Part shown: piece by piece, positions 1 to 24,047 of the stretch | Layout of the letters: each line of letters opens with the position of its first letter | Numbering within the stretch: the stretch's first letter is position 1 | DNA from: Escherichia coli | GTDB lineage: Bacteria > Pseudomonadota > Gammaproteobacteria > Enterobacterales > Enterobacteriaceae | Reading direction: 5' to 3' (one strand) | Length of the DNA stretch: 64,000 bases | NCBI RefSeq assembly: GCF_024502345.1 | Contig: NZ_JALDNN010000001.1 | The notes under the pieces: model-generated | Database searches by the model: none | What the model was told of the DNA's origin: nothing | Seen by the model: only the letters and a program-made list of their open reading frames with translations | Made by a program: the position numbers and the translations under genes

Positions 1-403
1 CTTTCACTGCGATATGACGCACAGAGATACGTTCACCATGCATTGCCGCTTTCGAACCAGTAAGCAGCGGATGCCACGCAGGTAAATCTTTACCTTCCGC
101 CAGCAAACGATAAGCGCAGGTCATTGGCAGCCATTCGAATGTTGGCAGATTTTCACGGGTTAATTTAATGCAGTCGGGTTCAAACTCGAAACGACGTTCG
201 TAGTTCCGACATTGACAGGTTTTAATATTGAGCTGGCGACAGGCGACGTTAGTGAAGTAGATTTCGTCGGTGTCTTCATCCATCAGTTTATGCAGGCAAC
301 ACTGACCGCAACCATCACACAACGACTCCCATTCCGCATCGCTCATTTCGTCCAGGGTTTTACTTTGCCAGAAAGGTACATCGCTCATCAGGTGTTCCGC
401 CAT
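1..403 (-). CDS. ycgN: UPF0260 protein YcgN, cut by the window edge (start codon at 401-403)
   Basis: Reverse-strand frame translates [15 protein letters not shown]... with CxxC motifs; lies downstream of ycgM as in K-12. Start codon choice is uncertain (second ATG at 386-388). Confidence 0.65.
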
Positions 404-479
404 TACGTTAAAACGCACCTTATAACCAGTCTGGCACAGCGATGCAAGTTTTGCCGCCGCTTTCAGGCGGCAAAAAGTA

Positions 480-1139
480 TTACAAAACGCGAGTTGCCAA
501 AGAATGCCCATCGAAAGTGACTGTCAGCTCATCACCGCTTTGCAACGGGCCGACGCCATCAGGCGTGCCTGTCAACACAACGTCACCGGCCTTGAGGGTA
601 AAAAACTTGCTCATATAAGCGATCAGCGGAACGATTTTATGGATCATGTCCGCAGTCGTACCTTGCTGGCGTTGTTCGCCGTTTACGCTCAGGCCCAGCG
701 TTGTATTTTGCGGGTCGCCGGTAAATTCCGCCGCGGGAATAAACCCGGAAAGCGGACAAGAGTTATCAAACGCTTTAGCCTTTTCCCACGGCTGCCCGGC
801 TGTCTTCATTTTTCCCTGAACATCACGCAACGTCAGATCGAGCGCCACGCCGTAACCGGCAATGGCTTTGCGGACATGTTCTTCCGTAGCCTGACGCAGC
901 GTCGCGCCAATCAACACCGCCAGTTCGACTTCATGATGAACTGAACCGAAATCGGATGGGATCGCCAATGGCTGCCGCAGATCGCACAGTGCCGTTTCTG
1001 GTTTAATAAACAGCACTGGCTCTTCGGGCACTGCGCTGCCCATCTCTTTAATATGTTTGGCATAGTTACTGCCAACACAGACTACTTTACTCACCGGATA
1101 ATCCAGCAGCGCACCTTGCCAGTTGTGATGTTGATACAT
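480..1139 (-). CDS. ycgM: Fumarylacetoacetate hydrolase family protein YcgM
   Basis: 219-aa ORF in the track; K-12 synteny with ycgL/ycgN. Confidence 0.9.
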
Positions 1140-1210
1140 AACGTTCCCCTCACCTTATCGTGGATATGAAAACCCGCGCCGACAAAGATAATGCCACCGC
1201 CGGATATCGG

Positions 1211-1537
1211 TTATTTGTTAGTGTCGTCTGTTTTCTGCCCCATGACGGAAAGATGTTGCTTCAGCAAATCTTCGGGTGGTGGCGGTAACTGCAAATAGTA
1301 ACCTTGCTCGGTTAATGCCTGTTTAACCTTTTCAATATCGGCATTGACCAGTTTCTTCCGCCCATCCAGCGGCAGAATCATCGCTAATTGAGGCTGACCA
1401 AAACCTTTCATCAGTTCCTCAGGAACACGAGAAAAATCGTCTTTTTTTTCGACATATAAATAGGTCTGGTCACGCTTGCTGCTTCGATAAATCACACAAA
1501 ACATACTTTTACTCTTTAAGATGCCAGGTTTTGGCAT
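1211..1537 (-). CDS. ycgL: YcgL domain protein
   Basis: 108-aa ORF; synteny next to minC-side genes. Confidence 0.85.
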
Positions 1538-1745
1538 AAGCTAACATCAATGAAACCCGCGCCACAAGCCAGCCAGCTGTAGATTTCTGCGGTTTGTTGA
1601 GTCCATGCCCCTTTATAAGTAATCCCCCCGGCAAAAAATGCCGCGCCGGGATTTTACCGAACGCAGAAAAGCCACTGGAATTCTCCCGTAAGGGATTGTT
1701 ATATTATAACAGTTCATCGTACTCATTCTGAACAGGAGACTACCA

Positions 1746-2147
1746 ATGAAAATCAAGAGCATCAGTAAGGCTGTATTGCTGCTTGCACTGCTAACCTCCA
1801 CGAGCTTTGCTGCGGGTAAGAATGTCAATGTTGAGTTCAGCAAAGGCCATAGCAGCGCTCAGTACTCCGGCGAAATAAAGGGATACGATTACGATACATA
1901 TACCTTCTATGCCAAAAAAGGTCAGAAAGTGCATGTGAGTATCTCTAATGAAGGCGCTGATACTTACCTCTTCGGGCCAGGAATCGATGATTCTGTTGAT
2001 TTATCCAGATATTCCCCTGAACTCGATAGTCACGGACAATACTCACTCCCTGCTTCTGGCAAATATGAGCTGCGAGTGCTGCAAACCCGAAACGACGCCC
2101 GTAAAAACAAAACTAAAAAATATAACGTCGATATTCAAATTAAGTAA
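1746..2147 (+). CDS. pliG: Periplasmic inhibitor of g-type lysozyme PliG (YcgK)
   Basis: 133-aa ORF with an N-terminal signal peptide (MKIKSISKAVLLLALLTSTSFA); synteny. Confidence 0.85.
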   Translation: MKIKSISKAVLLLALLTSTSFAAGKNVNVEFSKGHSSAQYSGEIKGYDYDTYTFYAKKGQKVHVSISNEGADTYLFGPGIDDSVDLSRYSPELDSHGQYSLPASGKYELRVLQTRNDARKNKTKKYNVDIQIK

Positions 2148-2266
2148 ATGTCAACCGACGGGGACTCTCCCCGTCATAAACGTTAACGCCCCACTCCTCT
2201 CTGTCGCTCAAGAGGTTAATGACGAATAGCAGACAATGCCGAATAGAACATAATGTAAACAAGGCA

Positions 2267-2635
2267 TCACTCACGACACATAAATAACATCTTTGTGGTG
2301 GTTTGATTGATTTTTCCACTCCGCTTACCATCCACACCAAAATAACGATCATCACGACATAATTTTTCTTTAACATCGCAAAATACACCGTTAGCGAATG
2401 TAAATTCGCTGGGATCGTAGCCTTGTAATGATTGTAAGTTTTCAGCGGCTTTTTCGCCGAGATATTTCCTTGTTAACTCTGGGGAAATGCCATCTGAGTT
2501 CACACAAATATACGGGTCGCAAACAACGCCGCACGCCGGAGATTGAAGTCCGCCAGCGTCATTTCCAGACGCCATTGATGAGAACATCATCCCCACACCT
2601 GACAATCCGATATAAAAAATACGCATCATATTCAT
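2267..2635 (-). CDS. ycgJ: Uncharacterised protein YcgJ
   Basis: 122-aa ORF; position between pliG and minC as in K-12. Confidence 0.8.
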   Translation of the reverse strand: MNMMRIFYIGLSGVGMMFSSMASGNDAGGLQSPACGVVCDPYICVNSDGISPELTRKYLGEKAAENLQSLQGYDPSEFTFANGVFCDVKEKLCRDDRYFGVDGKRSGKINQTTTKMLFMCRE

Positions 2636-3154
2636 AGCACATCCTGATAATCCAACCGTACAACACTTATGCTCATTTCATCATCAATCCGTAATCAAAA
2701 CCGCTGACCTGGACGAGTTACGATGACCTGACAGAAGTATCAGACGTCTTCTGCGGTTTCTATGATAGAGCAATTCTGTGGCGGATATTAAGATAACGGG
2801 TATCTGTTCTTTAATGATGCCGCAAAAAATGGAAAGTTAAGAAAGCCTGGCGTGGTGAAAAAATACACTTGCCTCAATACTGGATATTTAAACAGGTCTG
2901 GAGATGCTGTCACGATTAGGGTGCGGAAAAAGGAAGCGTAAATAAGAACAATCAAAAGTACGACGGCAATGGGTTGATTGACAAGGGTATTTTTTAAGCT
3001 ATGAATCAGCGCCATTTATCACTGAATAGACTTTTACTCTGAATAAATGGGAGGGTGACTTGCCTCAATATAATCCAGACTATAACATGCCTTATAGTCT
3101 TCGGAACATCATCGCGCGCTGGCGATGATTAATAGCTAATTGAGTAAGGCCAGG

Positions 3155-3850
3155 ATGTCAAACACGCCAATCGAGCTTAAAGGCAGTAGCTTCACTTTAT
3201 CTGTGGTTCATCTGCATGAGGCAGAACCTAAGGTTATCCATCAGGCGCTGGAAGACAAAATCGCTCAGGCCCCCGCATTTTTAAAACATGCCCCCGTTGT
3301 ACTCAACGTCAGTGCACTGGAAGACCCGGTAAACTGGTCAGCGATGCATAAGGCGGTTTCGGCAACCGGTTTGCGGGTTATTGGCGTAAGTGGCTGCAAA
3401 GATGCGCAACTTAAAGCCGAAATTGAAAAAATGGGGCTGCCTATCCTGACGGAAGGAAAGGAAAAAGCGCCACGTCCAGCTCCCGCACCGCAGGCTCCAG
3501 CGCAAAATACAACGCCGGTCACAAAAACGCGTTTAATAGATACCCCGGTGCGTTCCGGTCAGCGTATTTATGCTCCACAATGTGATCTGATTGTTACAAG
3601 CCACGTTAGCGCTGGGGCCGAATTGATTGCCGATGGTAACATTCATGTCTATGGCATGATGCGCGGTCGTGCGCTGGCAGGGGCAAGTGGTGACCGGGAA
3701 ACGCAAATATTTTGTACGAACCTGATGGCGGAATTGGTGTCCATCGCAGGTGAATACTGGCTGAGTGATCAAATCCCAGCAGAATTTTATGGCAAAGCGG
3801 CGCGACTGCAGTTAGTCGAAAACACTTTGACCGTTCAACCGTTAAATTGA
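3155..3850 (+). CDS. minC: Septum site-determining protein MinC
   Basis: ATG at 3155 gives [21 protein letters not shown]..., 231 aa; the track ORF begins 5 codons upstream at a TTG. Confidence 0.95.
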
Positions 3851-3873
3851 TCCCTTTTTAACAAGGAATTTCT

Positions 3874-4686
3874 ATGGCACGCATTATTGTTGTTACTTCG
3901 GGCAAAGGGGGTGTTGGTAAGACAACCTCCAGCGCGGCCATCGCCACTGGTTTGGCCCAGAAGGGAAAGAAAACTGTCGTGATAGATTTTGATATCGGCC
4001 TGCGTAATCTCGACCTGATTATGGGTTGCGAACGCCGGGTCGTTTACGATTTCGTCAACGTCATTCAGGGCGATGCAACGCTAAATCAGGCGTTAATTAA
4101 AGATAAGCGTACTGAAAATCTCTATATTCTGCCGGCATCGCAAACACGCGATAAAGATGCCCTCACCCGTGAAGGGGTCGCCAAAGTTCTTGATGATCTG
4201 AAAGCGATGGATTTTGAATTTATCGTTTGTGACTCCCCGGCAGGGATTGAAACCGGTGCGTTAATGGCACTCTATTTTGCAGACGAAGCCATTATTACCA
4301 CCAACCCGGAAGTCTCCTCAGTACGCGACTCTGACCGTATTTTAGGCATTCTGGCGTCAAAATCACGCCGCGCAGAAAATGGCGAAGAGCCTATTAAAGA
4401 GCACCTGCTGTTAACGCGCTATAACCCAGGCCGCGTAAGCAGAGGTGACATGCTGAGCATGGAAGATGTGCTGGAGATCCTGCGCATCAAACTCGTCGGC
4501 GTGATCCCAGAGGATCAATCAGTATTGCGCGCCTCTAACCAGGGTGAGCCGGTCATTCTCGACATTAACGCCGATGCGGGTAAAGCCTACGCAGATACCG
4601 TAGAACGTCTGTTGGGAGAAGAACGTCCTTTCCGCTTCATTGAAGAAGAGAAGAAAGGCTTCCTCAAACGCTTGTTCGGAGGATAA
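3874..4686 (+). CDS. minD: Septum site-determining ATPase MinD
   Basis: 270-aa ORF with Walker A GKGGVGKTT; deviant ParA/MinD family. Confidence 0.97.
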   Translation: MARIIVVTSGKGGVGKTTSSAAIATGLAQKGKKTVVIDFDIGLRNLDLIMGCERRVVYDFVNVIQGDATLNQALIKDKRTENLYILPASQTRDKDALTREGVAKVLDDLKAMDFEFIVCDSPAGIETGALMALYFADEAIITTNPEVSSVRDSDRILGILASKSRRAENGEEPIKEHLLLTRYNPGRVSRGDMLSMEDVLEILRIKLVGVIPEDQSVLRASNQGEPVILDINADAGKAYADTVERLLGEERPFRFIEEEKKGFLKRLFGG

Positions 4687-4689
4687 GTT

Positions 4690-4956
4690 ATGGCATTACT
4701 CGATTTCTTTCTCTCGCGGAAGAAAAATACAGCCAACATTGCAAAAGAACGGCTGCAGATTATTGTTGCTGAACGCCGTCGCAGCGATGCAGAACCGCAT
4801 TATCTGCCGCAGTTGCGTAAAGATATTCTTGAGGTCATTTGTAAATACGTACAAATTGATCCTGAGATGGTAACCGTACAGCTTGAGCAAAAAGATGGCG
4901 ATATTTCTATTCTTGAGCTGAACGTGACCTTACCGGAAGCAGAAGAGCTGAAATAA
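4690..4956 (+). CDS. minE: Cell division topological specificity factor MinE
   Basis: 88-aa [34 protein letters not shown]... Confidence 0.97.
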
Positions 4957-4982
4957 TCCCGCTGTAAAAGCGCATTTATCTT

Positions 4983-5014
4983 CAAGGCAGAGTTATCTCT
5001 GCCTTGAGTTTTTC
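4983..5014 (+). terminator. Intrinsic terminator downstream of minE
   Basis: Stem caaggcaga/tctgccttg with loop gttatc, followed by agtttttc. Confidence 0.7.
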
Positions 5015-5103
5015 ATCCCTCTCATCCACGTTGTGGTAAAGCGGCGAGTATTCTTGCTGATACTCCTCATTGCTATTTCCACCTCCCCCTTTACACCTTA
5101 AGG

Positions 5104-6160
5104 GGCTTTGTTGAATAAATCGAACTTTTGCTGAGTTGAAGGATCAGATCACGTATCTTCCCGACAACGCAGACCGTTCCGTGGCAAAGCAAAAGTTCAA
5201 AATCACCAACTGGCCCACCTACAATAAAGCCCTCATCAACCGTGGCTCCATAACTTTCTGGCTGGATGATGAAGCTATTCAGGCCTGGTATGAGTCAGCA
5301 ACACCTTCTTCACGAGGCAGACCTCAGCGCTATTCTGACCTTGCCATCACGACTGTGCTGGTCATTAAACGCGTATTCAGGCTGACCCTGCGCGCTGCGC
5401 AGGGCTTTATTGATTCCATTTTTTCTCTGATGAACGTTCCGCTACGCTGCCCGGATTACAGCTGTGTCAGCAGGCGGGCAAAGTCGGTTAATGTCAGTTT
5501 CAAAACGCCCACCCGGGGTGAAATCGCACACCTGGTAATTGATTCCACCGGGCTGAAGGTCTTCGGTGAAGGCGAGTGGAAAGTCAAAAAGCATGGCCAG
5601 GAACGCCGCCGTATCTGGCGTAAGCTGCATCTCGCCGTTGACAGTAAAACACATGAAATCATCTGCGCTGACCTGTCGCTGAACAACGTTACGGACTCAG
5701 AGGCCTTCCCCGGGTTAATCCGGCAAACCCACCGGAAAATCAGGTCAGCCGCCGCCGATGGCGCTTACGATACCCGGCTATGTCACGATGAACTGCGGCG
5801 TAAGAAAATCAGCGCGCTTATCCCTCCCCGAAAAGGTGCGGGTTACTGGCCCGGTGAATATGCAGACCGTAACCGTGCAGTGGCTAATCAGCGAATGACC
5901 GGGAGTAATGCGCGGTGGAAATGGACAACAGATTACAACCGTCGCTCGATAGCGGAAACGGCGATGTACCGGGTAAAACAGCTGTTCGGGGGTTCACTGA
6001 CACTGCGTGACTACGATGGTCAGGTTGCAGAGGCTATGGCCCTGGTACGAGCGCTGAACAAAATGACGAAAGCAGGTATGCCTGAAAGCGTGCGTATTGC
6101 CTGAAAACACAACCCGCTACGGGGGAGACTTACCCGAAATCTGATTTATTCAACAAAGCC
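5104..6160 (+). mobile_element. IS903-group insertion sequence (IS5 family), copy 1, 1057 bp, no target-site duplication
   Basis: Perfect 18-bp terminal inverted repeats GGCTTTGTTGAATAAATC (5104-5121 and 6143-6160); length 1057 bp; transposase ORF. Flanking 9-mers differ (ACCTTAAGG vs ATCGTGCAC). Confidence 0.93.
5181..6104 (+). CDS. IS903-type transposase (307 aa from GTG at 5181; the track ORF starts at TTG 5136)
   Basis: Translation VAKQKFKITNWPTYNKALINRGSITFWLDDEAIQAWYESATPSSRGRPQRYSDL... matches the IS903/IS102 transposase family from memory. Confidence 0.9.
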   Translation: MAKQKFKITNWPTYNKALINRGSITFWLDDEAIQAWYESATPSSRGRPQRYSDLAITTVLVIKRVFRLTLRAAQGFIDSIFSLMNVPLRCPDYSCVSRRAKSVNVSFKTPTRGEIAHLVIDSTGLKVFGEGEWKVKKHGQERRRIWRKLHLAVDSKTHEIICADLSLNNVTDSEAFPGLIRQTHRKIRSAAADGAYDTRLCHDELRRKKISALIPPRKGAGYWPGEYADRNRAVANQRMTGSNARWKWTTDYNRRSIAETAMYRVKQLFGGSLTLRDYDGQVAEAMALVRALNKMTKAGMPESVRIA

Positions 6161-6208
6161 ATCGTGCACACTACGCAGTCTCACAACTAACAAGAGGTTA
6201 TTATCCTG

Positions 6209-6613
6209 ATGGATCAGGTCGTTGTTTTTCAAAAGATGTTTGAGCAAGTGAGAAAAGAGCAAAACTTCTCCTGGTTTTATTCAGAATTAAAACATCACCG
6301 TATTGCACATTACATTTATTATCTGGCTACGGATAACATCAGAATTATTACTCACGATGACACGGTTTTGTTATTAAGAGGAACCAGGAACCTGTTAAAA
6401 GTTAGTACGACCAAGAACCCTGCTAAAATAAAAGAGGCCGCATTGCTTCATATTTGCGGAAAATCTACATTTCGGGAATACTGTTCAACACTGGCAGACG
6501 CGGGCGTTTTCCGTTGGGTTACTGATGTTAATCATAACAAACGCAGTTACTACGCCATTGATAATACGCTTTTATATATTGAAGATGTAGAAAATAATAA
6601 ACCATTAATCTAG
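6209..6613 (+). CDS. ycgX: DUF1398 family protein, YcgX-like
   Basis: 134-aa ORF immediately upstream of iraM, the K-12 position of ycgX. The protein sequence itself was not matched from memory. Confidence 0.6.
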   Translation: MDQVVVFQKMFEQVRKEQNFSWFYSELKHHRIAHYIYYLATDNIRIITHDDTVLLLRGTRNLLKVSTTKNPAKIKEAALLHICGKSTFREYCSTLADAGVFRWVTDVNHNKRSYYAIDNTLLYIEDVENNKPLI

Positions 6614-6828
6614 CTAAAGTTGGATGCTTAAGAAATGCTTCATAATTCAGTATGGCATTAGCATAATGGGAATAAAAGTACAGAGACTATCCCTATGGAT
6701 GATAAATACTGTCCTTTTATTGCTACCCATAAATAATCACCTGGCCAATACTATCAAATTGATATTTGAAATGTGATCACTTGACTTTCTATACGTTATT
6801 TCATAACGTTTAATATATTTATAAAAAC

Positions 6829-6851
6829 AACGGGCGTGCCATACGCCCGTT
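6829..6851. terminator. Hairpin aacgggcgt-gccat-acgcccgtt in the ycgX-iraM spacer; likely terminator
   Basis: Perfect 9-bp stem; the reverse strand is followed by a T-rich run. About 85% similar over roughly 50 bp to the hairpin at 7689-7711. Confidence 0.5.
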
Positions 6852-7308
6852 TCAATACTTAACGCACATGTGTTTTGGTTTAGTCATCATCCAGTTATAT
6901 GTATTTTAGCCAGGAACAGGTTAAACCTTTCCTATATAACTCAAAAATTGAAACCTTATTCTCATGTCATGCTTATATTCATTATTATCGTTATATAAAA
7001 AGGCAACCATAATGTTTAGCAAATTGGCACAAAGTAGCATAAAGGCTATGTTTTAATTACAGGATGGTCAGTCATTTGAATGTATAACATTATAGCTAAA
7101 CAAATCTAAAACGAAGTGAATAATTTATTGTTTTCACTAAATCTCATTTTGTTTAACATCCATTGAGATTCCTTGCTTTAAATTTTGTTTTATATAAGCA
7201 ATTGTTTTAATTAATTTATTTTTTGAAGGGGTAATATACTCATATGCAAAATAAAGAAATGAACATCCAAATGAACTATATTAAATACCGTGGGATAAGA
7301 CATAACAA

Positions 7309-7632
7309 ATGAAGTGGGTAGTAATTGACACGGTAATTCAACCTACATGCGGCATATCTTTTTCAGCCATATGGGGTGATATGAAAATGATTATCTGGTA
7401 TCAATCTACTATATTTCTTCCTCCTGGAAGTATATTTACACTGGTTAAGCCTGGTATTATCCTTAAGGATAAAGAATATCCTATAACTATTTATAACATT
7501 GCACCATTCAACAAGAATTTATGGAGTTTACTCAAAAGCAGTCAAGAGTGTCCTCCAGGAGAAAGCGAAATAACAAATAAATGTTTGCATAAGAGTTGTA
7601 TTATAAAAATATGCCCATATGGGCTCAAGTAA
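7309..7632 (+). CDS. iraM: Anti-adaptor protein IraM (stabilises RpoS against RssB)
   Basis: 107-aa [44 protein letters not shown]...; long AT-rich upstream region; adjacent to icd. Confidence 0.85.
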
Positions 7633-7688
7633 TGGGTTTTATATAAATATGCTCGATATGCTATTAATAATATCCACATAAATAAAAC

Positions 7689-7711
7689 AACGGGCGTGTT
7701 ATACGCCCGTT
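7689..7711. terminator. Bidirectional intrinsic terminator between convergent iraM and icd
   Basis: Stem aacgggcgt/acgcccgtt with loop gttat; on the reverse strand it is followed by GTTTTATTTAT, directly downstream of the icd stop. Confidence 0.7.
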
Positions 7712-7734
7712 TAAATATTTAACACATGTAGTGA

Positions 7735-8985
7735 TTACATATTTTTGATGATCGCATCACCAAACTCTGAACATTTCAGCAGTTTAGCGCCTTCCATCAG
7801 ACGTTCGAAGTCATAGGTTACGGTCTTCGCATTGATTGCGCCTTCCATACCTTTAACAATCAGGTCTGCGGCTTCGGTCCAACCCATGTGGCGTAACATC
7901 ATCTCAGCAGAGAGAATAATAGAACCTGGGTTAACTTTGTCCTGACCGGCATATTTCGGCGCAGTACCGTGGGTGGCTTCAAACAGGGCGCATTCGTCAC
8001 CGATGTTTGCACCAGGGGCGATACCGATACCGCCAACCTGCGCTGCCAGGGCGTCAGAAATGTAGTCACCGTTCAGGTTCATACAGGCGATAACATCATA
8101 TTCAGCCGGACGCAGCAGGATCTGTTGCAGGAATGCATCAGCAATCACGTCTTTAATGACGATCTCTTTGCCGGTATTCGGGTTTTTAACTTTCAGCCAC
8201 GGGCCGCCGTCGATCAGTTCACCGCCAAATTCTTCACGCGCCAGCTGGTAGCCCCAGTCTTTAAACGCGCCTTCGGTGAACTTCATGATGTTGCCTTTGT
8301 GCACCAGGGTCACAGAGTCACGATCGTTAGCAATTGCGTATTCGATCGCTGCACGAACCAGACGTTTGGTGCCTTCTTCAGAACACGGCTTAATACCGAT
8401 ACCGCAATGTTCCGGGAAGCGAATTTTCTTCACGCCCATCTCTTCACGCAGGAATTTAATCACTTTCTCGGCGTCGGCAGAGTCAGCTTTCCATTCGATA
8501 CCCGCATAAATGTCTTCCGAGTTTTCACGGAAGATAACCATATCGGTCAGTTCAGGGTGTTTAACCGGGCTTGGAGTGCCCTGATAGTAACGTACCGGAC
8601 GCAGGCAGATGTAGAGATCCAGTTCCTGGCGCAGGGCAACGTTCAGAGAGCGAATACCGCCACCAACCGGAGTGGTCAGCGGGCCTTTAATGGCAACGCG
8701 ATATTCACGAATCAGATCAAGGGTTTCAGCAGGCAGCCAGACATCCTGACCATAAACCTGTGTGGATTTTTCACCGGTGTAAATTTCCATCCAGGAGATT
8801 TTACGCTCGCCTTTATAGGCTTTCTCGACTGCAGCGTCGACCACTTTCAGCATGGCTGGGGTTACATCTACACCGATTCCATCACCTTCAATGTAAGGGA
8901 TAATCGGATTTTCAGGAACGTTGAGTTTGCCGTTTTGCAGGGTGATCTTCTTGCCTTGTGCCGGAACAACTACTTTACTTTCCAT
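7735..8985 (-). CDS. icd: Isocitrate dehydrogenase (NADP)
   Basis: 416-aa [41 protein letters not shown]...; no prophage is attached to its 3' end. Confidence 0.97.
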
Positions 8986-9156
8986 TCACCTCTCCTTCGA
9001 GCGCTACTGGTTTGCTCGTCTGCCACCACGTTGCATATGCGTTTGCGTCCTGCGATACGGATGCTTTAGAGCAATTTTTTGTTAATGATTTGTAATTGGC
9101 TTGTCAATACTACCCTATTGTTTGCCGTCATGAAAGATGCGCGTTATTAGGCTATA

Positions 9157-9810
9157 ATGCGGCAATTCATAATCTCTGAAAATACCATGCAAAAAACTTC
9201 TTTTAGAAATCACCAGGTTAAGCGATTCAGCTCGCAACGTTCTACCAGGCGTAAACCTGAAAACCAGCCCACGCGTGTGATCCTGTTCAATAAACCCTAC
9301 GATGTTCTTCCGCAGTTCACCGATGAAGCCGGACGCAAAACATTAAAAGAATTCATCCCGGTTCAGGGCGTTTATGCAGCAGGTCGTCTTGACCGCGATA
9401 GCGAAGGGTTACTGGTGCTGACCAATAACGGCGCGTTGCAGGCGCGTTTAACCCAGCCGGGCAAACGCACCGGGAAAATCTATTATGTGCAGGTGGAAGG
9501 TATTCCCACACAAGACGCACTTGAAGCCTTGCGCAATGGCGTAACCTTAAATGATGGCCCTACCCTGCCCGCCGGCGCGGAGCTGGTTGACGAACCTGCG
9601 TGGTTATGGCCGCGGAATCCACCAATTCGTGAACGCAAAAGTATTCCCACCAGCTGGCTGAAGATCACCTTATATGAAGGACGTAATCGCCAGGTGCGCC
9701 GCATGACCGCCCATGTTGGCTTCCCCACGCTGCGACTGATTCGTTATGCGATGGGTGATTACACTTTGGATAATCTCGCTAACGGCGAATGGCGAGAAGC
9801 GACAGAATAA
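9157..9810 (+). CDS. rluE: 23S rRNA pseudouridine(2457) synthase RluE
   Basis: 217-aa ORF, pseudouridine synthase family; divergent from icd as in K-12. Confidence 0.9.
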
Positions 9811-9819
9811 GGATGCAAA

Positions 9820-11441
<1,622 letters not shown>

Positions 11442-11476
11442 TTATTATCTTTACTTAAAACAAGGAAGCAGTGAAC

Positions 11477-12118
11477 GTGGCAAAGAATTACTATGACATC
11501 ACCCTCGCCCTGGCCGGTATTTGTCAGTCGGCACGCCTGGTGCAACAACTCGCTCACCAGGGGCATTGTGATGCCGATGCGCTACACGTCTCACTCAACA
11601 GTATTATTGATATGAACCCCAGCTCGACGCTGGCGGTTTTTGGCGGTAGCGAAGCCAACCTGCGCGTCGGGCTGGAAACCCTGCTCGGCGTGCTCAATGC
11701 CAGCAGTCGCCAGGGCTTAAACGCCGAATTAACCCGCTACACACTCAGTCTGATGGTGCTTGAGCGCAAACTCTCCTCAGCGAAAGGTGCGCTCGACACT
11801 CTGGGCAACCGGATCAACGGCCTGCAACGCCAACTCGAACACTTCGATTTACAGTCCGAAACGCTGATGAGCGCGATGGCTGCTATCTATGTTGATGTGA
11901 TTAGCCCGCTTGGCCCGCGCATTCAGGTCACCGGCTCCCCTGCTGTACTGCAAAGCCCACAAGTGCAGGCGAAAGTTCGCGCAACCCTGCTGGCAGGCAT
12001 TCGCGCCGCCGTGCTCTGGCACCAGGTCGGCGGCGGACGTCTGCAACTGATGTTTTCTCGTAATCGCCTGACCACTCAGGCAAAACAAATTCTTGCTCAT
12101 TTAACCCCGGAGTTGTGA
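11477..12118 (+). CDS. hflD: High-frequency lysogenisation protein HflD
   Basis: GTG start gives (M)[31 protein letters not shown]..., 213 aa. Confidence 0.88.
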
Positions 12119-13492
<1,374 letters not shown>

Positions 13493-13504
13493 ACTCGTAT
13501 CAGT

Positions 13505-13560
13505 GCCGGATAGCGATGCTGTCCGGCCTGCTTATTAAGATTATCCGCTTTTTATTTTTT
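13505..13560 (+). terminator. REP-like palindrome and T-tract downstream of purB
   Basis: gccggatagcgatgctgtccggc followed by a T-rich tract (gctttttatttttt). Confidence 0.5.
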
Positions 13561-13582
13561 CACTTTACCTCCCCTCCCCGCT

Positions 13583-13599
13583 GGTTTATTTAATGTTTA
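13583..13599 (+). promoter_or_regulatory. PhoP box (autoregulated phoP promoter)
   Basis: GGTTTA-tttaa-TGTTTA direct repeat, matching the (T/G)GTTTA-N5-(T/G)GTTTA consensus, about 60 bp upstream of the phoP ATG. Confidence 0.8.
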
Positions 13600-13659
13600 C
13601 CCCCATAACCACATAATCGCGTTACACTATTTTAATAATTAAGACAGGGAGAAATAAAA

Positions 13660-14331
13660 ATGCGCGTACTGGTTGTTGAAGACAATGCGTTGTTACGTCA
13701 CCACCTTAAAGTTCAGATTCAGGATGCTGGTCATCAGGTCGATGACGCAGAAGATGCCAAAGAAGCCGATTATTATCTCAATGAACATTTACCGGATATT
13801 GCGATTGTCGATCTCGGATTGCCAGACGAGGACGGTCTGTCACTGATTCGCCGCTGGCGTAGCAATGATGTTTCACTGCCGATTCTGGTATTAACCGCCC
13901 GTGAAAGCTGGCAGGACAAAGTCGAAGTATTAAGTGCCGGTGCTGATGATTACGTGACTAAACCGTTTCATATTGAAGAGGTGATGGCGCGAATGCAGGC
14001 ATTAATGCGGCGTAATAGCGGTCTGGCTTCACAGGTCATTTCGCTCCCCCCGTTTCAGGTTGATCTCTCTCGCCGTGAATTATCTATTAATGACGAAGTG
14101 ATCAAACTGACCGCGTTCGAATACACCATTATGGAAACGTTGATACGCAATAATGGCAAAGTGGTCAGCAAAGATTCGTTAATGCTACAACTCTATCCGG
14201 ATGCGGAGCTGCGGGAAAGCCATACCATTGATGTACTGATGGGACGTCTGCGCAAAAAAATTCAGGCACAATATCCGCAAGAAGTGATTACTACCGTTCG
14301 CGGCCAGGGCTATCTGTTCGAATTGCGCTGA
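13660..14331 (+). CDS. phoP: Two-component response regulator PhoP
   Basis: 223-aa [42 protein letters not shown]... Confidence 0.97.
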
Positions 14332-15791
14332 TGAAAAAATTACTGCGTCTTTTTTTCCCGCTCTCGCTGCGGGTACGTTTTCTGTTGGCAACGGCAGCGG
14401 TAGTACTGGTGCTTTCGCTTGCCTACGGAATGGTCGCGCTGATCGGTTATAGCGTCAGTTTCGATAAAACTACGTTTCGGCTGTTACGTGGCGAGAGCAA
14501 TCTGTTCTATACCCTTGCGAAGTGGGAAAACAATAAGTTGCATGTCGAGTTACCCGAAAATATCGACAAGCAAAGCCCCACCATGACGCTAATTTATGAT
14601 GAGAACGGGCAGCTTTTATGGGCGCAACGTGACGTGCCCTGGCTGATGAAGATGATCCAGCCTGACTGGCTGAAATCGAATGGTTTTCATGAAATTGAAG
14701 CGGATGTTAACGATACCAGCCTCTTGCTGAGTGGAGATCATTCGATACAGCAACAGTTGCAGGAAGTGCGGGAAGATGATGACGACGCGGAGATGACCCA
14801 CTCGGTGGCGGTAAACGTCTACCCGGCAACATCGCGGATGCCAAAGTTAACCATTGTGGTGGTGGATACCATTCCGGTGGAGCTAAAAAGTTCCTATATG
14901 GTCTGGAGCTGGTTTATCTATGTGCTCTCAGCCAATCTGCTGTTAGTGATCCCGCTGCTGTGGGTCGCCGCCTGGTGGAGTTTACGCCCCATCGAAGCTC
15001 TGGCAAAAGAAGTCCGCGAACTGGAAGAACATAACCGCGAATTGCTCAATCCAGCCACAACGCGAGAACTGACCAGTCTGGTACGAAACCTGAACCGATT
15101 GTTAAAAAGTGAACGCGAACGTTACGACAAATATCGTACAACGCTCACCGACCTGACCCATAGTCTGAAAACGCCACTGGCGGTGCTGCAAAGTACGCTG
15201 CGTTCTCTGCGTAGTGAAAAGATGAGCGTCAGTGATGCTGAACCGGTAATGCTGGAGCAAATCAGCCGCATTTCACAGCAAATTGGCTACTACCTGCATC
15301 GTGCCAGTATGCGCGGCGGGACATTGCTCAGCCGCGAGCTGCATCCGGTCGCCCCACTGCTGGACAATCTCACCTCGGCGCTGAACAAAGTGTATCAACG
15401 CAAAGGGGTCAATATCTCTCTCGATATTTCGCCAGAGATCAGCTTTGTCGGTGAGCAGAACGATTTTGTCGAGGTGATGGGCAATGTGCTGGATAATGCC
15501 TGTAAATATTGCCTCGAGTTTGTCGAAATTTCTGCAAGGCAAACCGACGAGCATCTCTATATTGTGGTCGAGGATGATGGACCCGGTATTCCATTAAGCA
15601 AGCGAGAGGTCATTTTCGACCGTGGTCAACGGGTTGATACTTTACGCCCTGGGCAAGGTGTAGGGCTGGCGGTAGCCCGCGAAATCACCGAGCAATATGA
15701 GGGTAAAATCGTCGCCGGAGAGAGCATGCTTGGCGGTGCGCGGATGGAGGTGATTTTTGGTCGCCAGCATTCTACGCCGAAAGATGAATAA
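14331..15791 (+). CDS. phoQ: Sensor histidine kinase PhoQ
   Basis: 486-aa ORF overlapping the phoP stop (ATGA); transmembrane segments and histidine kinase motifs. Confidence 0.97.
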
Positions 15792-15866
15792 ATATGTCCA
15801 TACTTCACGCATTACGTTAAGCATCCGTTATAATCGGTTGCAGATACCAGCCTGTGGATGCTTAAC

Positions 15867-16988
15867 ATGGAATACCAACTCACTCTTAACTGGCCCGATT
15901 TTCTTGAACGTCACTGGCAAAAACGCCCGGTGGTGTTAAAACGCGGCTTTAATAATTTTATTGACCCGATCTCTCCAGACGAGTTGGCGGGTCTGGCGAT
16001 GGAAAGCGAAGTCGACAGTCGACTGGTCAGTCACCAGGATGGAAAATGGCAGGTCAGCCACGGTCCGTTCGAAAGCTACGATCATCTCGGTGAAACTAAC
16101 TGGTCATTGTTAGTGCAAGCAGTGAACCACTGGCATGAGCCGACCGCCGCGCTGATGCGACCGTTCCGTGAACTACCGGACTGGCGTATTGATGATCTGA
16201 TGATCTCTTTTTCTGTACCTGGCGGCGGCGTCGGCCCGCATCTCGATCAGTACGACGTGTTTATCATTCAGGGTACCGGACGTCGTCGCTGGCGAGTGGG
16301 CGAAAAGCTGCAAATGAAACAGCACTGCCCACATCCGGATCTGTTACAGGTCGATCCGTTCGAAGCCATCATCGATGAAGAGCTGGAGCCTGGTGATATT
16401 CTTTATATTCCGCCAGGATTCCCGCATGAAGGCTACGCGCTGGAAAATGCGATGAACTATTCCGTGGGTTTTCGCGCGCCAAATACGCGGGAACTGATTA
16501 GTGGATTTGCCGATTATGTGCTGCAACGTGAACTGGGCGGCAACTACTACAGCGATCCTGATGTTCCACCTCGCGCTCATCCTGCGGATGTTCTGCCGCA
16601 AGAGATGGATAAACTGCGTGAGATGATGCTCGAATTGATCAACCAGCCGGAACACTTTAAGCAATGGTTTGGCGAGTTTATATCCCAGTCACGTCATGAA
16701 CTGGATATCGCGCCGCCAGAGCCGCCTTATCAGCCAGATGAGATCTACGATGCGCTGAAACAAGGTGAAGTGCTGGTGCGCCTGGGTGGTCTGCGCGTAT
16801 TGCGCATTGGCGACGACGTGTATGCCAATGGTGAGAAGATCGATTCCCCGCACCGTCCGGCACTGGATGCACTCGCCAGCAACATTGCGCTGACCGCGGA
16901 GAATTTTGGCGATGCGCTGGAAGATCCGTCATTCCTCGCGATGCTCGCGGCGCTGGTAAATAGCGGGTATTGGTTCTTCGAAGGGTAA
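15867..16988 (+). CDS. roxA: Ribosomal protein uL16 arginine hydroxylase RoxA (YcfD)
   Basis: ATG at 15867 gives MEYQLTLNWPDFLERHWQKRPVVLKRGF..., 373 aa, cupin/JmjC-like. Confidence 0.88.
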   Translation: MEYQLTLNWPDFLERHWQKRPVVLKRGFNNFIDPISPDELAGLAMESEVDSRLVSHQDGKWQVSHGPFESYDHLGETNWSLLVQAVNHWHEPTAALMRPFRELPDWRIDDLMISFSVPGGGVGPHLDQYDVFIIQGTGRRRWRVGEKLQMKQHCPHPDLLQVDPFEAIIDEELEPGDILYIPPGFPHEGYALENAMNYSVGFRAPNTRELISGFADYVLQRELGGNYYSDPDVPPRAHPADVLPQEMDKLREMMLELINQPEHFKQWFGEFISQSRHELDIAPPEPPYQPDEIYDALKQGEVLVRLGGLRVLRIGDDVYANGEKIDSPHRPALDALASNIALTAENFGDALEDPSFLAMLAALVNSGYWFFEG

Positions 16989-17000
16989 GTTTGGATTTAA

Positions 17001-17075
17001 GCCGGATGTGGCGCTGATTGCGCCTTATCGTGCCTACATGCACTGAACGCCTGTAGGCACGATAAGTATGTGGAC
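17001..17075. repeat. REP/BIME element between roxA and pepT
   Basis: Two inverted REP-like palindromes (gccggatgtggcgctgattgcgccttatc... and gcctgtaggcacgataag). Confidence 0.7.
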
Positions 17076-17133
17076 CAGTGTCAATATAACGGTTTCATCC
17101 CGGTAATTGGCAGTCCACATACGCATCGGGCAA

Positions 17134-18363
17134 TCACGACTTCCGTTGCGCCGTTAACTCGGCAATACGGACGATCACCTGCACCGCTTTTTCCATACCT
17201 TCCAGAGTCACAAACTCATGCTTACCATGATAGTTGTAACCGCCAGTGAACAGGTTCGGGCACGGTAATCCCATAAACGACAACTGCGCGCCGTCGGTAC
17301 CACCGCGGATCGGTTTCAGTTCCGGTTCAATATCGCAGTCACGCATCGCCTGCTGGGCGATATCGAGAATATGCGGATGCTCAACCACTTTCTCGCGCAT
17401 ATTGTAGTAACTGTCTTCAATCACCAATTCAATGTAGCAATCAGGATGTAACCCTTTGCCCACTTTTTTGGCGATCTCCATCATTTTACGTTTACGCGCT
17501 TCAAACTGTTTACGGTCGAAATCACGGATGATGTAGTGCATATCGGCCCGTTCAACGGTGCCTTTCATGCTCGCCAGGTGATAGAAACCTTCATAGCCTT
17601 CTGTCATTTCCGGGCTTTCATCCGCCGGAACTTCCGCATGAATACGTGCCGCCAGCGACAGCGCATTTACCATCACTCCTTTCGCCGTACCCGGGTGAAC
17701 ATTGTTACCGACAATTTTGATATTGACCGACGCGGCGTTGAAGTTTTCAAACTCCAGTTCGCCTACGCCACCACCATCAACAGTGTAAGCCCAGCGGGCA
17801 TCGAAGGCGTCAACATCAAAATGTTTCGCCCCTTTGCCCACTTCTTCATCCGGGGTAAAGGCGACGCGAATATCACCATGCGGAATGTTTTTCTGTTGCA
17901 ATACCGCCAGCGCGGTCATGATTTCTGCAATACCGGCTTTGTCATCGGCACCTAACAAGGTTTTACCATCGGTAGTAATCAGCGTCTGACCCAGTAGCTG
18001 ATGCAGCACCGGGAACATAACCGGTGATAAAACTTCATCGCCGATACCCAGCGCAATATCGCCACCGCGATAGTTTTCAACAATTTGCGGATTCACATTT
18101 TTGCCGCTGCAATCCGGTGAGGTATCCACATGAGAAATAAAGCCAATCGCCGGGATATCGCCAGGGACGTTAGCCGGTAACGTCGCCATCAAAGTGCCCT
18201 TCTCACTTAAGGTCACATTGATAAGCCCCATCTCTTCGAGCTGCTCTTTCAGCAGATGCAATAACTTCCATTGGCCTTCCGTGCTGGGAACCTGTCTCAC
18301 CCCTGCTTTTGATTGGGTATCCAGAGACACGTAGTTCAAAAATCGCTCAAGTAGTTTATCCAT
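17134..18363 (-). CDS. pepT: Peptidase T (tripeptide aminopeptidase)
   Basis: Translation [35 protein letters not shown]... from the ATG at 18361-18363; the track ORF extends 14 codons upstream. Confidence 0.93.
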
Positions 18364-18612
18364 GTAGTCACCCTCACTTTTTGTGACAACATTATTAAGA
18401 AGCAAGAAAAGACAAATATTGCGTCAGGTCACTTTTACCCCTGCAAGCGGGAATATTTATCAGCATTACCTTAATCAATATAAAGCTAAGCCAGTAATTC
18501 ACAACAAAGATTGGCGATTCAAGCGGTTTGCCGTAGAATTACCGCCCTCATTAAGAGTCACCAAGGTGGTTAACCACAAACCCCGCATCGGTAAGCCATC
18601 CGTTGCGTTTAC

Positions 18613-19749
18613 ATGGGACAGAGTAAAAAATTGAATAAACAACCGAGTTCGCTTTCACCGCTGGTGCAATTGGCGGGAATTCGCAAATGCTTTGATGGTA
18701 AAGAGGTCATTCCCCAGCTGGATCTGACTATCAACAATGGCGAGTTCCTCACGCTGCTTGGCCCTTCTGGCTGCGGTAAAACAACCGTTCTTCGCCTGAT
18801 TGCAGGTCTGGAAACTGTTGATTCCGGACGCATCATGTTGGATAACGAGGACATCACCCACGTTCCGGCGGAAAACCGCTATGTGAACACTGTTTTCCAA
18901 AGCTACGCACTTTTCCCCCACATGACCGTGTTCGAAAATGTGGCCTTTGGGTTGCGCATGCAAAAAACCCCCGCTGCTGAAATTACGCCCCGCGTGATGG
19001 AAGCCCTGCGGATGGTGCAGCTGGAAACCTTCGCTCAACGTAAACCGCATCAGCTCTCTGGTGGTCAACAGCAACGCGTCGCCATTGCTCGCGCGGTGGT
19101 TAACAAGCCTCGTCTGTTGTTGCTGGATGAGTCGCTCTCAGCGCTGGATTACAAACTGCGCAAGCAAATGCAGAACGAGCTGAAAGCGTTACAGCGTAAG
19201 CTTGGCATTACATTCGTCTTCGTGACTCACGACCAGGAAGAAGCACTCACCATGTCGGACAGGATTGTGGTGATGCGCGATGGTCGCATTGAGCAAGACG
19301 GCACGCCGCGTGAAATCTACGAAGAGCCGAAAAACCTGTTTGTTGCCGGGTTCATTGGCGAAATCAATATGTTTAACGCCACTGTCATCGAACGTCTCGA
19401 CGAGCAGCGCGTACGCGCCAACGTTGAAGGCCGCGAATGTAATATCTACGTTAACTTCGCCGTTGAACCGGGGCAAAAACTGCATGTTCTGCTGCGCCCG
19501 GAAGACTTACGTGTTGAAGAGATTAACGACGACAACCACGCTGAAGGGCTGATTGGTTACGTTCGCGAGCGTAACTACAAAGGCATGACGCTGGAGTCGG
19601 TTGTTGAACTGGAAAATGGCAAGATGGTGATGGTCAGCGAATTCTTCAATGAAGACGATCCTGACTTTGACCACTCTCTCGACCAAAAAATGGCCATTAA
19701 TTGGGTAGAAAGCTGGGAGGTCGTACTGGCTGATGAAGAACACAAGTAA
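18613..19749 (+). CDS. potA: Spermidine/putrescine ABC transporter ATPase PotA
   Basis: 378-aa ORF with Walker [10 protein letters not shown] and ABC signature LSGGQQQRV. Confidence 0.96.
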
Positions 19750-20590
19750 GTTCCAGAATGTAGTGATTGTCACTATTGTCGGTTGGCTTGTGTTGTTTGT
19801 CTTCCTGCCCAACCTGATGATCATTGGCACCAGCTTTTTGACCCGCGACGACGCCAGTTTCGTCAAAATGGTCTTTACGCTGGATAACTACACACGTCTG
19901 CTCGATCCGCTCTATTTTGAAGTGCTATTGCACTCGCTGAATATGGCGCTGATCGCCACCCTCGCCTGCCTGGTGCTGGGCTACCCGTTTGCCTGGTTTC
20001 TGGCGAAGCTGCCACACAAGGTGCGTCCGCTGCTGCTGTTTCTGCTGATTGTTCCCTTCTGGACCAACTCACTGATTCGCATCTACGGGCTGAAAATTTT
20101 CCTCAGCACCAAAGGCTACCTCAACGAGTTTTTGCTCTGGCTGGGCGTTATCGACACACCAATCCGTATCATGTTCACGCCCAGTGCGGTGATTATCGGT
20201 CTGGTTTACATTCTGCTGCCGTTTATGGTGATGCCGCTGTACTCCAGTATCGAAAAACTGGATAAGCCGTTGCTTGAGGCGGCGCGCGATCTCGGTGCCA
20301 GCAAGTTACAGACTTTTATCCGTATCATTATTCCACTGACGATGCCGGGAATTATTGCCGGATGTCTGCTGGTTATGCTGCCAGCGATGGGCCTGTTCTA
20401 TGTGTCCGACCTGATGGGCGGTGCGAAAAACCTGCTGATCGGTAACGTCATCAAGGTCCAGTTCCTTAATATTCGTGACTGGCCGTTTGGTGCAGCTACC
20501 AGCATTACGCTGACTATCGTAATGGGCCTGATGTTGCTGGTTTACTGGCGCGCTTCTCGTTTGCTGAATAAGAAGGTGGAACTCGAATGA
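19733..20590 (+). CDS. potB: Spermidine/putrescine ABC transporter permease PotB (alternative GTG start at 19763 gives 275 aa)
   Basis: Track ORF overlapping the potA end; multi-pass membrane permease. Confidence 0.9.
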
Positions 20591-21381
20591 TCGGTCGACT
20601 GCTTCGCGGCGGTTTTATGACCGCTATCTACGCGTACCTGTATATCCCAATCATTATTTTGATTGTGAACTCCTTTAACAGCTCGCGCTTTGGCATCAAC
20701 TGGCAGGGTTTTACCACCAAATGGTATAGCCTGCTGATGAACAACGACAGCCTGTTACAGGCAGCGCAGCATTCACTAACAATGGCGGTGTTTTCGGCGA
20801 CGTTTGCTACGCTTATCGGTTCACTGACGGCAGTTGCGCTGTACCGTTATCGCTTTCGTGGTAAGCCGTTCGTTAGCGGAATGCTGTTTGTGGTGATGAT
20901 GTCACCAGATATCGTGATGGCGATTTCGCTGCTGGTGCTGTTTATGCTGCTGGGTATTCAGCTTGGCTTCTGGTCGCTGCTGTTCTCGCATATCACCTTC
21001 TGCCTGCCATTTGTGGTGGTGACGGTGTATTCGCGCCTGAAAGGTTTTGACGTGCGAATGCTGGAAGCGGCGAAAGATCTCGGTGCCAGTGAATTTACCA
21101 TTCTGCGAAAAATCATTCTGCCACTGGCAATGCCTGCGGTGGCGGCGGGCTGGGTGTTAAGCTTTACCCTGTCGATGGACGATGTGGTAGTTTCTTCGTT
21201 CGTCACCGGACCAAGCTATGAAATTCTGCCGTTAAAAATTTATTCGATGGTCAAAGTCGGCGTATCGCCGGAAGTTAACGCGCTGGCAACCATATTACTG
21301 GTGCTGTCGCTGGTGATGGTTATTGCCAGCCAGCTTATTGCTCGTGATAAAACGAAAGGTAACACAGGGGACGTTAAATGA
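20587..21381 (+). CDS. potC: Spermidine/putrescine ABC transporter permease PotC
   Basis: 264-aa ORF overlapping the potB stop. Confidence 0.95.
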   Translation: MIGRLLRGGFMTAIYAYLYIPIIILIVNSFNSSRFGINWQGFTTKWYSLLMNNDSLLQAAQHSLTMAVFSATFATLIGSLTAVALYRYRFRGKPFVSGMLFVVMMSPDIVMAISLLVLFMLLGIQLGFWSLLFSHITFCLPFVVVTVYSRLKGFDVRMLEAAKDLGASEFTILRKIILPLAMPAVAAGWVLSFTLSMDDVVVSSFVTGPSYEILPLKIYSMVKVGVSPEVNALATILLVLSLVMVIASQLIARDKTKGNTGDVK

Positions 21382-22424: not shown

Positions 22425-22432
22425 TTCAGCAA

Positions 22433-22461
22433 GCGGGCGGTGGTATTACCGCCCGTTTTTT
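22433..22461 (+). terminator. Intrinsic terminator after potD
   Basis: gcgggcgg-tggtatta-ccgcccg followed by TTTTTT. Confidence 0.8.
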
Positions 22462-22481
22462 AGTTAGCAAGGATGTGACTA

Positions 22482-22943
22482 ATGAGTCAGGACAGTAAAG
22501 TTTTCTTTCGTATATTCTTCGGTATCGGTCTGGTACTGATCCTCATTTCTGTTGTTATCTTTTATAACCAGTTCACCTATAGCAAAGACGCGATTCATAC
22601 CGAAGGCGTCATTGTTGATACCGTCTTGCACTCCAGTCATTCTCATCGCACGGGTAAAAATGGTTCGTGGTATCCCGTCGTTGCCTTTCGACCGACGCCA
22701 GATTACACGCTAATTTTCAATTCGAGTATTGGCAGCGATTTTTATGAAGACAGCGAAGGCGATAAAGTTAATGTTTATTATTCTCCCGGGCATCCTGAAA
22801 AGGCTGAGATAAATAACCCGTGGGTTAATTTTTTTAAATGGGGGTTTATCGGCATTATGGGCGTTATTTTTATCGCCGTCGGTTTATTAATCAGTATGCC
22901 CTCCTCTAAAAAATCACGCAGGAAACGGAAGTCCCGTCCATGA
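22482..22943 (+). CDS. ymfA: Inner membrane protein YmfA (DUF3592)
   Basis: 153-aa ORF with two hydrophobic segments; synteny after potD. Confidence 0.85.
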
Positions 22944-22990: not shown

Positions 22991-24047
22991 GGCTTTGTTG
23001 AATAAATCGAACTTTTGCTGAGTTGAAGGATCAGATCACGTATCTTCCCGACAACGCAGACCGTTCCGTGGCAAAGCAAAAGTTCAAAATCACCAACTGG
23101 CCCACCTACAATAAAGCCCTCATCAACCGTGGCTCCATAACTTTCTGGCTGGATGATGAAGCTATTCAGGCCTGGTATGAGTCAGCAACACCTTCTTCAC
23201 GAGGCAGACCTCAGCGCTATTCTGACCTTGCCATCACGACTGTGCTGGTCATTAAACGCGTATTCAGGCTGACCCTGCGCGCTGCGCAGGGCTTTATTGA
23301 TTCCATTTTTTCTCTGATGAACGTTCCGCTACGCTGCCCGGATTACAGCTGTGTCAGCAGGCGGGCAAAGTCGGTTAATGTCAGTTTCAAAACGCCCACC
23401 CGGGGTGAAATCGCACACCTGGTAATTGATTCCACCGGGCTGAAGGTCTTCGGTGAAGGCGAGTGGAAAGTCAAAAAGCATGGCCAGGAACGCCGCCGTA
23501 TCTGGCGTAAGCTGCATCTCGCCGTTGACAGTAAAACACATGAAATCATCTGCGCTGACCTGTCGCTGAACAACGTTACGGACTCAGAGGCCTTCCCCGG
23601 GTTAATCCGGCAAACCCACCGGAAAATCAGGTCAGCCGCCGCCGATGGCGCTTACGATACCCGGCTATGTCACGATGAACTGCGGCGTAAGAAAATCAGC
23701 GCGCTTATCCCTCCCCGAAAAGGTGCGGGTTACTGGCCCGGTGAATATGCAGACCGTAACCGTGCAGTGGCTAATCAGCGAATGACCGGGAGTAATGCGC
23801 GGTGGAAATGGACAACAGATTACAACCGTCGCTCGATAGCGGAAACGGCGATGTACCGGGTAAAACAGCTGTTCGGGGGTTCACTGACACTGCGTGACTA
23901 CGATGGTCAGGTTGCAGAGGCTATGGCCCTGGTACGAGCGCTGAACAAAATGACGAAAGCAGGTATGCCTGAAAGCGTGCGTATTGCCTGAAAACACAAC
24001 CCGCTACGGGGGAGACTTACCCGAAATCTGATTTATTCAACAAAGCC
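22991..24047 (+). mobile_element. IS903-group insertion sequence, copy 2, 1057 bp, flanked by a 9-bp target-site duplication
   Basis: Same terminal repeats and encoded proteins as copy 1; direct orientation; perfect 9-bp duplication. Confidence 0.95.
23068..23991 (+). CDS. IS903-type transposase (307 aa from GTG; the track ORF starts at 23023)
   Basis: Identical to the transposase of copy 1. Confidence 0.9.
   Translation: MAKQKFKITNWPTYNKALINRGSITFWLDDEAIQAWYESATPSSRGRPQRYSDLAITTVLVIKRVFRLTLRAAQGFIDSIFSLMNVPLRCPDYSCVSRRAKSVNVSFKTPTRGEIAHLVIDSTGLKVFGEGEWKVKKHGQERRRIWRKLHLAVDSKTHEIICADLSLNNVTDSEAFPGLIRQTHRKIRSAAADGAYDTRLCHDELRRKKISALIPPRKGAGYWPGEYADRNRAVANQRMTGSNARWKWTTDYNRRSIAETAMYRVKQLFGGSLTLRDYDGQVAEAMALVRALNKMTKAGMPESVRIA

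Follow-up and report, generated by a model that had tools for sequence, protein, structure and literature searches.

An intact insertion sequence (IS) that lies at the exact ends of a deletion and lacks a target-site duplication is the textbook product of either an adjacent deletion or homologous recombination between two direct IS copies. For IS903, adjacent deletions arising by intramolecular transposition are known from the classic laboratory work of Grindley and Derbyshire, as summarised in PMC11708052; they are common for this element and depend on both IS ends (PMC11708052). In such deletions both IS ends stay intact, no duplication is present, one flank is original and the other is a new target, and the intervening DNA is lost. 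Homologous recombination between two copies gives an identical end product, one IS between two unrelated half-duplications, but requires a second copy at the other breakpoint. A related event was watched in the laboratory in E. coli C, where Ec-Del-IS, an IS5-family element of the IS903 subgroup with 14-bp inverted repeats and a 918-bp transposase gene, appeared as a new copy at the junction of a 62-kb deletion, again without a duplication (PMC11708052). With respect to the DNA concerned here, BluF antagonises the repressor BluR, whereupon ycgZ-ymgABC are induced, Rcs is activated, and curli and biofilm formation are modulated; loss of this blue-light module was documented in classical O157:H7 in 2012 (PMC3509220).

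Here, we characterize a locus of this kind in the window, by which we mean the whole 64-kb stretch of E. coli DNA that was analysed. The window is a chromosome segment of E. coli type that aligns with K-12 in reverse orientation, collinearly and at ~98.8% identity, over the region from rne to ycgL. Three structural differences from K-12 were seen, namely the absence of prophage e14 (with icd intact), an IS in ycfZ, and an IS between minE and ycgX with ~11 kb missing. We are highly confident that the last of these, termed copy 1, sits at a genuine and recent deletion that IS903B brought about, of ~10.7 kb, between minE and ycgX. The locus fits the features of IS903 adjacent deletions listed above but, unlike those obtained in plasmid assays, copy 1 sits in a natural chromosome and its route is one that we infer. 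It likewise matches the product of recombination between two IS copies, although no second copy was found at the other breakpoint. Compared with Ec-Del-IS, copy 1 belongs to the same IS subgroup and shares the position at a large-deletion junction and the missing duplication, whereas the inverted repeats and transposase gene differ in length and the E. coli C deletion is six times larger. In case of O157:H7 the same module was lost, but with a different IS family and different breakpoints, lineage-wide rather than in a single strain, and together with ycgX.

Copy 1 is a complete IS903B element (IS5 family, IS903 group), and the window holds a second, identical copy:

5104..6160, plus strand: IS903B copy 1, 1,057 bp, with 18-bp perfect terminal inverted repeats at 5104-5121 and 6143-6160 and no target-site duplication
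5136..6104, plus strand: IS903B transposase ORF, 322 aa from TTG, start as in the PGAP annotation of near-identical copies in other strains
22991..24047, plus strand: IS903B copy 2, an identical element with the 9-bp duplication CCTCTGACG intact at 22982-22990 and 24048-24056

Both copies are 1,057 bp long, 100% identical and in the same orientation. The terminal 18-mer GGCTTTGTTGAATAAATC was found at exactly four sites in the window (5104-5121 and 22991-23008 on the plus strand, 6143-6160 and 24030-24047 on the minus strand), forming two inverted pairs where none would be expected by chance; the inverted repeats are perfect over 18 bp and diverge beyond. The 322-aa ORF matched the NCBIfam profile NF033579 (transpos_IS5_2) at 357 bits (cut-off 140, E = 6e-107) over profile positions 1-289 of 289, and the offset of the transposase CDS within the IS is the same in a near-identical copy of strain EA7. 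Further, copy 1 is 100% identical across its full 1,057 bp to many plasmid copies annotated as 'IS5-like element IS903B family transposase', and the name IS903B rests on these annotated copies. Plasmid-borne copies 100% identical to the window element were found in Citrobacter, Salmonella and E. coli, and a plasmid is the likely source of the IS. The GGCTTTGTTGAATAAATC pair and the full-length identity are in good agreement with the original prediction, which had placed an IS903-group element with perfect 18-bp inverted repeats at 5104..6160.

The two junctions of copy 1 and the genes on either side are as follows:

4690..4956, plus strand: minE, the last intact gene left of the deletion, an 88-aa ORF 100% identical to K-12 MinE (tblastn)
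4981..5016, plus strand: minE intrinsic terminator, a 12-pair stem and T-run (terminator-like site 4981-5008, then TTTTT), kept upstream of the IS
5095..5103, unstranded: left flanking 9-mer ACCTTAAGG, the final bases of undeleted DNA, followed in K-12 and in the relative L059 (see below) by CTGTTCCCACGC... and not by the IS
6161..6169, unstranded: right flanking 9-mer ATCGTGCAC, the first undeleted bases, preceded in K-12 and in the relative L052 by ...GGTAAAACCG (downstream of bluR) and not by the IS
6209..6613, plus strand: ycgX (DUF1398), 99.3% identical to K-12 YcgX, with its native upstream region removed

A normal IS903B insertion leaves a 9-bp duplication, since four other copies each have a perfect one: copy 2 of the window, two copies in EA7 and one in GD33. 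Copy 2 thereby provides an internal control for normal insertion. Its perfect 9-bp duplication, already claimed in the original prediction, was recovered as CCTCTGACG at both sides of the element, and at the empty site in close relatives CCTCTGACG is present once. In strain 88-3493 the two flanks of this site run end to end over 1,385 bp, and the site is also empty in L051, an assembly 99.98% identical to the window. For copy 1, the earlier claim was that the flanking 9-mers differ; ACCTTAAGG and ATCGTGCAC indeed agree at only 3/9 positions, which is chance level. Given the perfect duplications of the three EA7 and GD33 copies, the missing duplication at copy 1 is therefore exceptional for IS903B.

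Copy 2 lies ~50 nt inside the 5' end of ycfZ, which encodes a TPM-domain inner-membrane protein and normally overlaps the ymfA stop codon (affected window positions 22940-24791). A 235-aa ORF with an internal ATG start (24084-24791) remains of ycfZ in the window, and the gene is intact (261 aa) in relatives 99.98% identical. Two ENA metagenome contigs, L009 (positions 1-140, ERZ19695678) and L010 (positions 1-140, ERZ19692831), begin inside IS903B and carry the exact right junction of copy 2; they are identical to the window for ~1.1 kb, followed by clustered mismatches in cobB. Those samples therefore contain the copy-2 lineage or a mixture that includes it.

Between the end of minE (4956) and the IS lie 147 nt, and between the right IS end and the ycgX ATG (6209) lie 48 nt, the only part of its own upstream region that ycgX retains. 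These values reproduce the predicted spacing of 148 bp downstream of minE and 48 bp upstream of ycgX to within a single nucleotide. A hybrid promoter at the IS-ycgX junction was considered and rejected, as a consensus scan returned no promoter-like site there; by the same scan, no native ycgX promoter is recognisable in K-12. At the new left junction (5087-5105), the terminator scan flagged a hairpin of 7 pairs (CCCTTTACACCTTAAGGGG) with CTTTGTTG behind it; most likely, this structure arose by chance when the junction formed. For two small junction-crossing ORFs (33 and 38 aa), exact look-ups found no record.

Comparison with K-12 defined the extent of the missing DNA. On either side of copy 1, collinearity with intact E. 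coli sequence extends exactly to the IS terminus. The left flank maps up to position 1,224,132 of NC_000913, where K-12 reads ...ACCTTAAGG|CTGTTCCC..., and the right flank maps from position 1,213,155, where K-12 reads ...GGTAAAACCG|ATCGTGCAC.... Microhomology at the breakpoints was rejected: a 6-bp BLAST extension of the right junction into the IS matches at only 4/6 positions and is due to chance. The interval absent from the window amounts to 10,976 bp in K-12, reaches from bluR to the ycgI pseudogene, and comprises bluR, bluF, ycgZ, ymgA, ariR, ymgC, pdeG, ymgF, the ycgH pseudogene, ymgD, ymgG, ymgI, ymgJ and the ycgI pseudogene. The original estimate of 11 to 12 kb between the flanks overstates the lineage-specific loss of 10.7 kb; the K-12 genes it listed are right, although the two autotransporter pseudogenes, ycgH and ycgI, were omitted.

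Elsewhere in the window, positions 7684-9000 are e14-free, with icd (7735-8985) as a single intact gene and iraM ~100 bp away, as in many non-K-12 strains. Involvement of e14 in the deletion was rejected: icd is intact, the prophage is simply absent, and its attachment region lies ~1.5 kb past the right breakpoint. Alignments to K-12 and many other strains also break at 17012-17139, between roxA and pepT, where the window has ~126 bp and K-12 ~26 bp; a variable intergenic repeat probably lies there.

To locate close relatives of the window, assemblies were sought by exact protein alleles. The common YcgX, IraM, RluE and PhoQ alleles led only to unrelated lineages, nearly all of which have the block intact or partly eroded. 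The rare Mfd, MnmA and MinC alleles gave three near-identical assemblies, among which the deletion strain itself was not found:

L051, GCA_001484085.1: 99.98% identical over 19.5 kb of the window, copy-2 site empty
L052, GCA_002543795.1: 99.93% identical over window 6161-21441 (15.3 kb), with bluR, bluF, ycgZ, ymgA, ariR, ymgC, pdeG and ymgF upstream of ycgX
L059, Logan run SRR24000611: 100% identical over window 1-5103, running straight into the block

Together, L059 and L052 have the block directly against both breakpoints and an IS at neither site. Stitching the two via a 3,860-bp overlap (99.92% identity) yielded a block of 10,713 bp that encodes 12 K-12 proteins at full length, namely the products of bluR, bluF, ycgZ, ymgA, ariR, ymgC, pdeG, ymgF, ymgD, ymgG, ymgI and ymgJ, and that also holds the ycgH autotransporter. 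In the 64-kb window, no block genes were detected by tblastn or blastn: the K-12 proteins match only MinE and YcgX, and bluF, bluR and the ycgZ-ymgA-ariR operon are not present at the minE-ycgX locus (tblastn with K-12 proteins). Because the block, and no IS, is present in relatives that match the flanks at 99.9-100% identity, the immediate ancestry of the window had the block and neither IS903B copy. The ancestral presence of the block is therefore no longer inferred from K-12 alone. Likewise, L051 lacks copy 2 at 99.98% identity, and both IS903B copies therefore arrived recently. GCA_001484235.1 is a further relative in this clade. Over window positions 6161-22990 (16.8 kb), identity to complete RefSeq E. 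coli genomes does not exceed ~98.7%, yet it reaches 99.9-100% in a few draft assemblies; the complete-genome set seems to lack the lineage of the window.

These relatives also bear on the reading that the block was never in this lineage and was gained by other strains. Tschowri et al. (PMC3509220) suggested phage-associated transfer as a possible original source of the region, which would fit such a history. However, the block occurs in relatives whose identity to the flanks is 99.9-100%, 87% of complete genomes have at least 80% of it, and the gap is bounded exactly by the ends of an IS that lacks a duplication. We regard this reading as effectively refuted and give it next to no weight.

The wider survey of complete genomes pointed in the same direction. 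At least 80% of the K-12 block was found in one place in 4,730 of 5,426 complete E. coli genomes, and no genome among the 5,426 had the two flanks as close together as ~1.5 kb, whether an IS was present or not. A synthetic IS-free junction query (1,000 + 1,000 bp) returned no genome with adjacent flanks, and neither junction of copy 1 was found in the same 5,426 genomes. The original prediction had named contiguous flanks in IS-free relatives as the observation that would speak against a deletion; none of the 5,426 complete genomes has them, and the closest relatives carry the block.

A different objection is that the DNA is not lost at all, either since an excised circle re-entered the genome at another IS903B copy or since a block lying between two IS903B copies was left out of the assembly. 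The DNA examined is 64 kb of a genome, and an IS repeat can mislead assemblers. Against this, the window runs unbroken through two identical repeats of 1,057 bp, which suggests long reads or a finished assembly, and either would resolve an 11-kb block as well; the 64-kb window holds no trace of the block, and the intact duplication of copy 2 indicates that copy 2 took no part. We consider a relocated or skipped block very improbable.

The IS of copy 1 is intact, its duplication is missing, the breakpoints coincide with the IS termini, and near-identical relatives carry the block. On these grounds, the IS-associated deletion of the bluR-to-ymgJ block put forward in the original prediction is supported. 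The route that we favour, if tentatively and at somewhat short of even confidence, is a two-step one. In the first step, an IS903B, probably plasmid-derived, would have inserted at one of the two present junctions with a normal 9-bp duplication. In the second, its transposase would have carried out intramolecular transposition into a second site 10.7 kb off on the same chromosome, the classic IS903 adjacent deletion. Such an event would keep the IS, join the moving end to the new target, and discard the intervening DNA along with one copy of the original duplication, so that the IS would be left between two unrelated 9-mers. Our preference for this route rests on its economy, as two events suffice within a very short time. 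We infer the sequence in which these took place, the junction that was used first, and the loss of the excised DNA. Three points weigh against adjacent deletion: no intermediate with IS, duplication and block was found among the 5,426 complete genomes, JGI metagenomes and GTDB representatives; the final sequence is identical to the product of recombination between two direct copies; and two separate insertions are plausible in an interval that attracts IS903B (two copies in EA7, one in GD33).

The precursor search covered complete genomes, JGI metagenomes and GTDB species representatives, none of which held an IS with its duplication at one site and the block still present. For the JGI and GTDB collections, degenerate patterns were used that spanned the real junctions and both hypothetical precursor junctions; a short-lived precursor could escape these collections. 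Insertions of IS903B at other positions of the interval were found, with an element 78 bp nearer minE in EA7 and one between bluR and ycgX in GD33, both at different sites and with their own duplications.

The last two points against adjacent deletion lead directly to a serious rival, in which two same-orientation IS903B insertions, one per junction and each with its own duplication, were followed by RecA-dependent recombination that removed the block and one IS copy. What remains, a hybrid IS, would have on its left the duplication of one original copy and on its right that of the other, which is exactly the product observed. The interval is a repeated IS903B target, with two copies ~5 kb apart inside it in EA7 and one between bluR and ycgX in GD33, all with duplications. 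The block is AT-rich (32-47% GC over much of its length), and an influence of H-NS on IS903 target choice has been reported (Swingle et al. 2004, as cited in PMC4999555). On the other hand, this route needs three events, yet only 0-10 substitutions per 5-15 kb separate the window from its IS-free relatives, no genome was found with a single insertion at either exact site, and the window copies are identical, so that a hybrid signature is unreadable. Copy 2 was rejected as a recombination partner because its own 9-bp duplication is intact. Overall, we judge two insertions followed by recombination to be a real but doubtful possibility.

Alternatively, the deletion could have been completed in one step, with a transposing IS903B joined to the chromosome as the 10.7 kb were lost and the duplication never made; the two IS ends may have attacked two separate sites, or the IS may have been captured in a double-strand break. 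The precedent is the E. coli C case, where a single overnight culture sufficed for an IS903-subgroup element to appear, with no duplication, in the middle of a 62-kb deletion, and the authors propose a one-step event (PMC11708052). The same authors concede, however, that insertion and rapid adjacent deletion also explain their case (PMC11708052), and nothing in the window sequence requires a single step. We therefore regard a one-step origin as quite unlikely, and insertion followed by adjacent deletion remains our preferred route.

Independent losses of the same block were found in other E. coli. In the urinary isolate 22AR0118 (NZ_CM132257.1) an IS-bounded loss lies between minE and iraM; unlike in the window, the element is IS1A, the deletion starts beyond ycgI, and ycgX and ymgL were removed too. 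In the Shiga-toxin-type (O157-type) genome 2017C-4109, a truncated autotransporter comes next after minE, and IS1203 lies behind it. A 4.4-Mb genome with an IpaH-type effector, probably Shigella, has a block loss bounded by IS1, and several livestock and reference-collection strains show block losses or erosions with IS1B, IS5 and IS3-family elements. Partial IS-bounded erosion was seen in EA7, L038, L039 and several complete genomes. Taken as observations on the interval itself, hits by IS903B, IS1A/B, the IS2/IS3 family, IS5 and IS1203 were recorded between minE and ycgX in unrelated strains (EA7, GD33, 22AR0118, 2017C-4109, L038, L039 and L055), several of them as IS-bounded partial or complete deletions. 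The minE-ycgX interval looks like a hotspot of IS-driven erosion, and the deletion described here adds one more case to a familiar class of events; the locus was known before to vary and to be dispensable. It is in our view unlikely that selection, as opposed to neutral decay, has led host-adapted E. coli to discard the blue-light/cold biofilm module convergently, with this loss as one instance; if true, the locus would resemble an 'antivirulence' or dispensable-in-host region whose loss is favoured.

In terms of consequences, and by analogy with the K-12 literature, the strain is predicted to be without BluF/BluR control of ycgZ-ymgA-ariR and hence without blue-light or cold input to Rcs, as well as without PdeG, YmgF, YmgD/G/I/J and the YcgH autotransporter. 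As a function, the blue-light/cold biofilm and acid-resistance module would thus be lost. At low temperature and under blue light, BluF/BluR-dependent regulation of Rcs, curli and colanic acid should be missing from the strain, as should AriR-linked effects on acid resistance and biofilm formation. This predicted phenotype could matter to users of the strain in biofilm or survival studies and would be of little wider importance. The locus serves as an example of how a plasmid-type IS903B, recent on the chromosome, removed 12 genes in a very short evolutionary time, and only the repeated erosion of this AT-rich interval by IS elements perhaps deserves a look at the population level.
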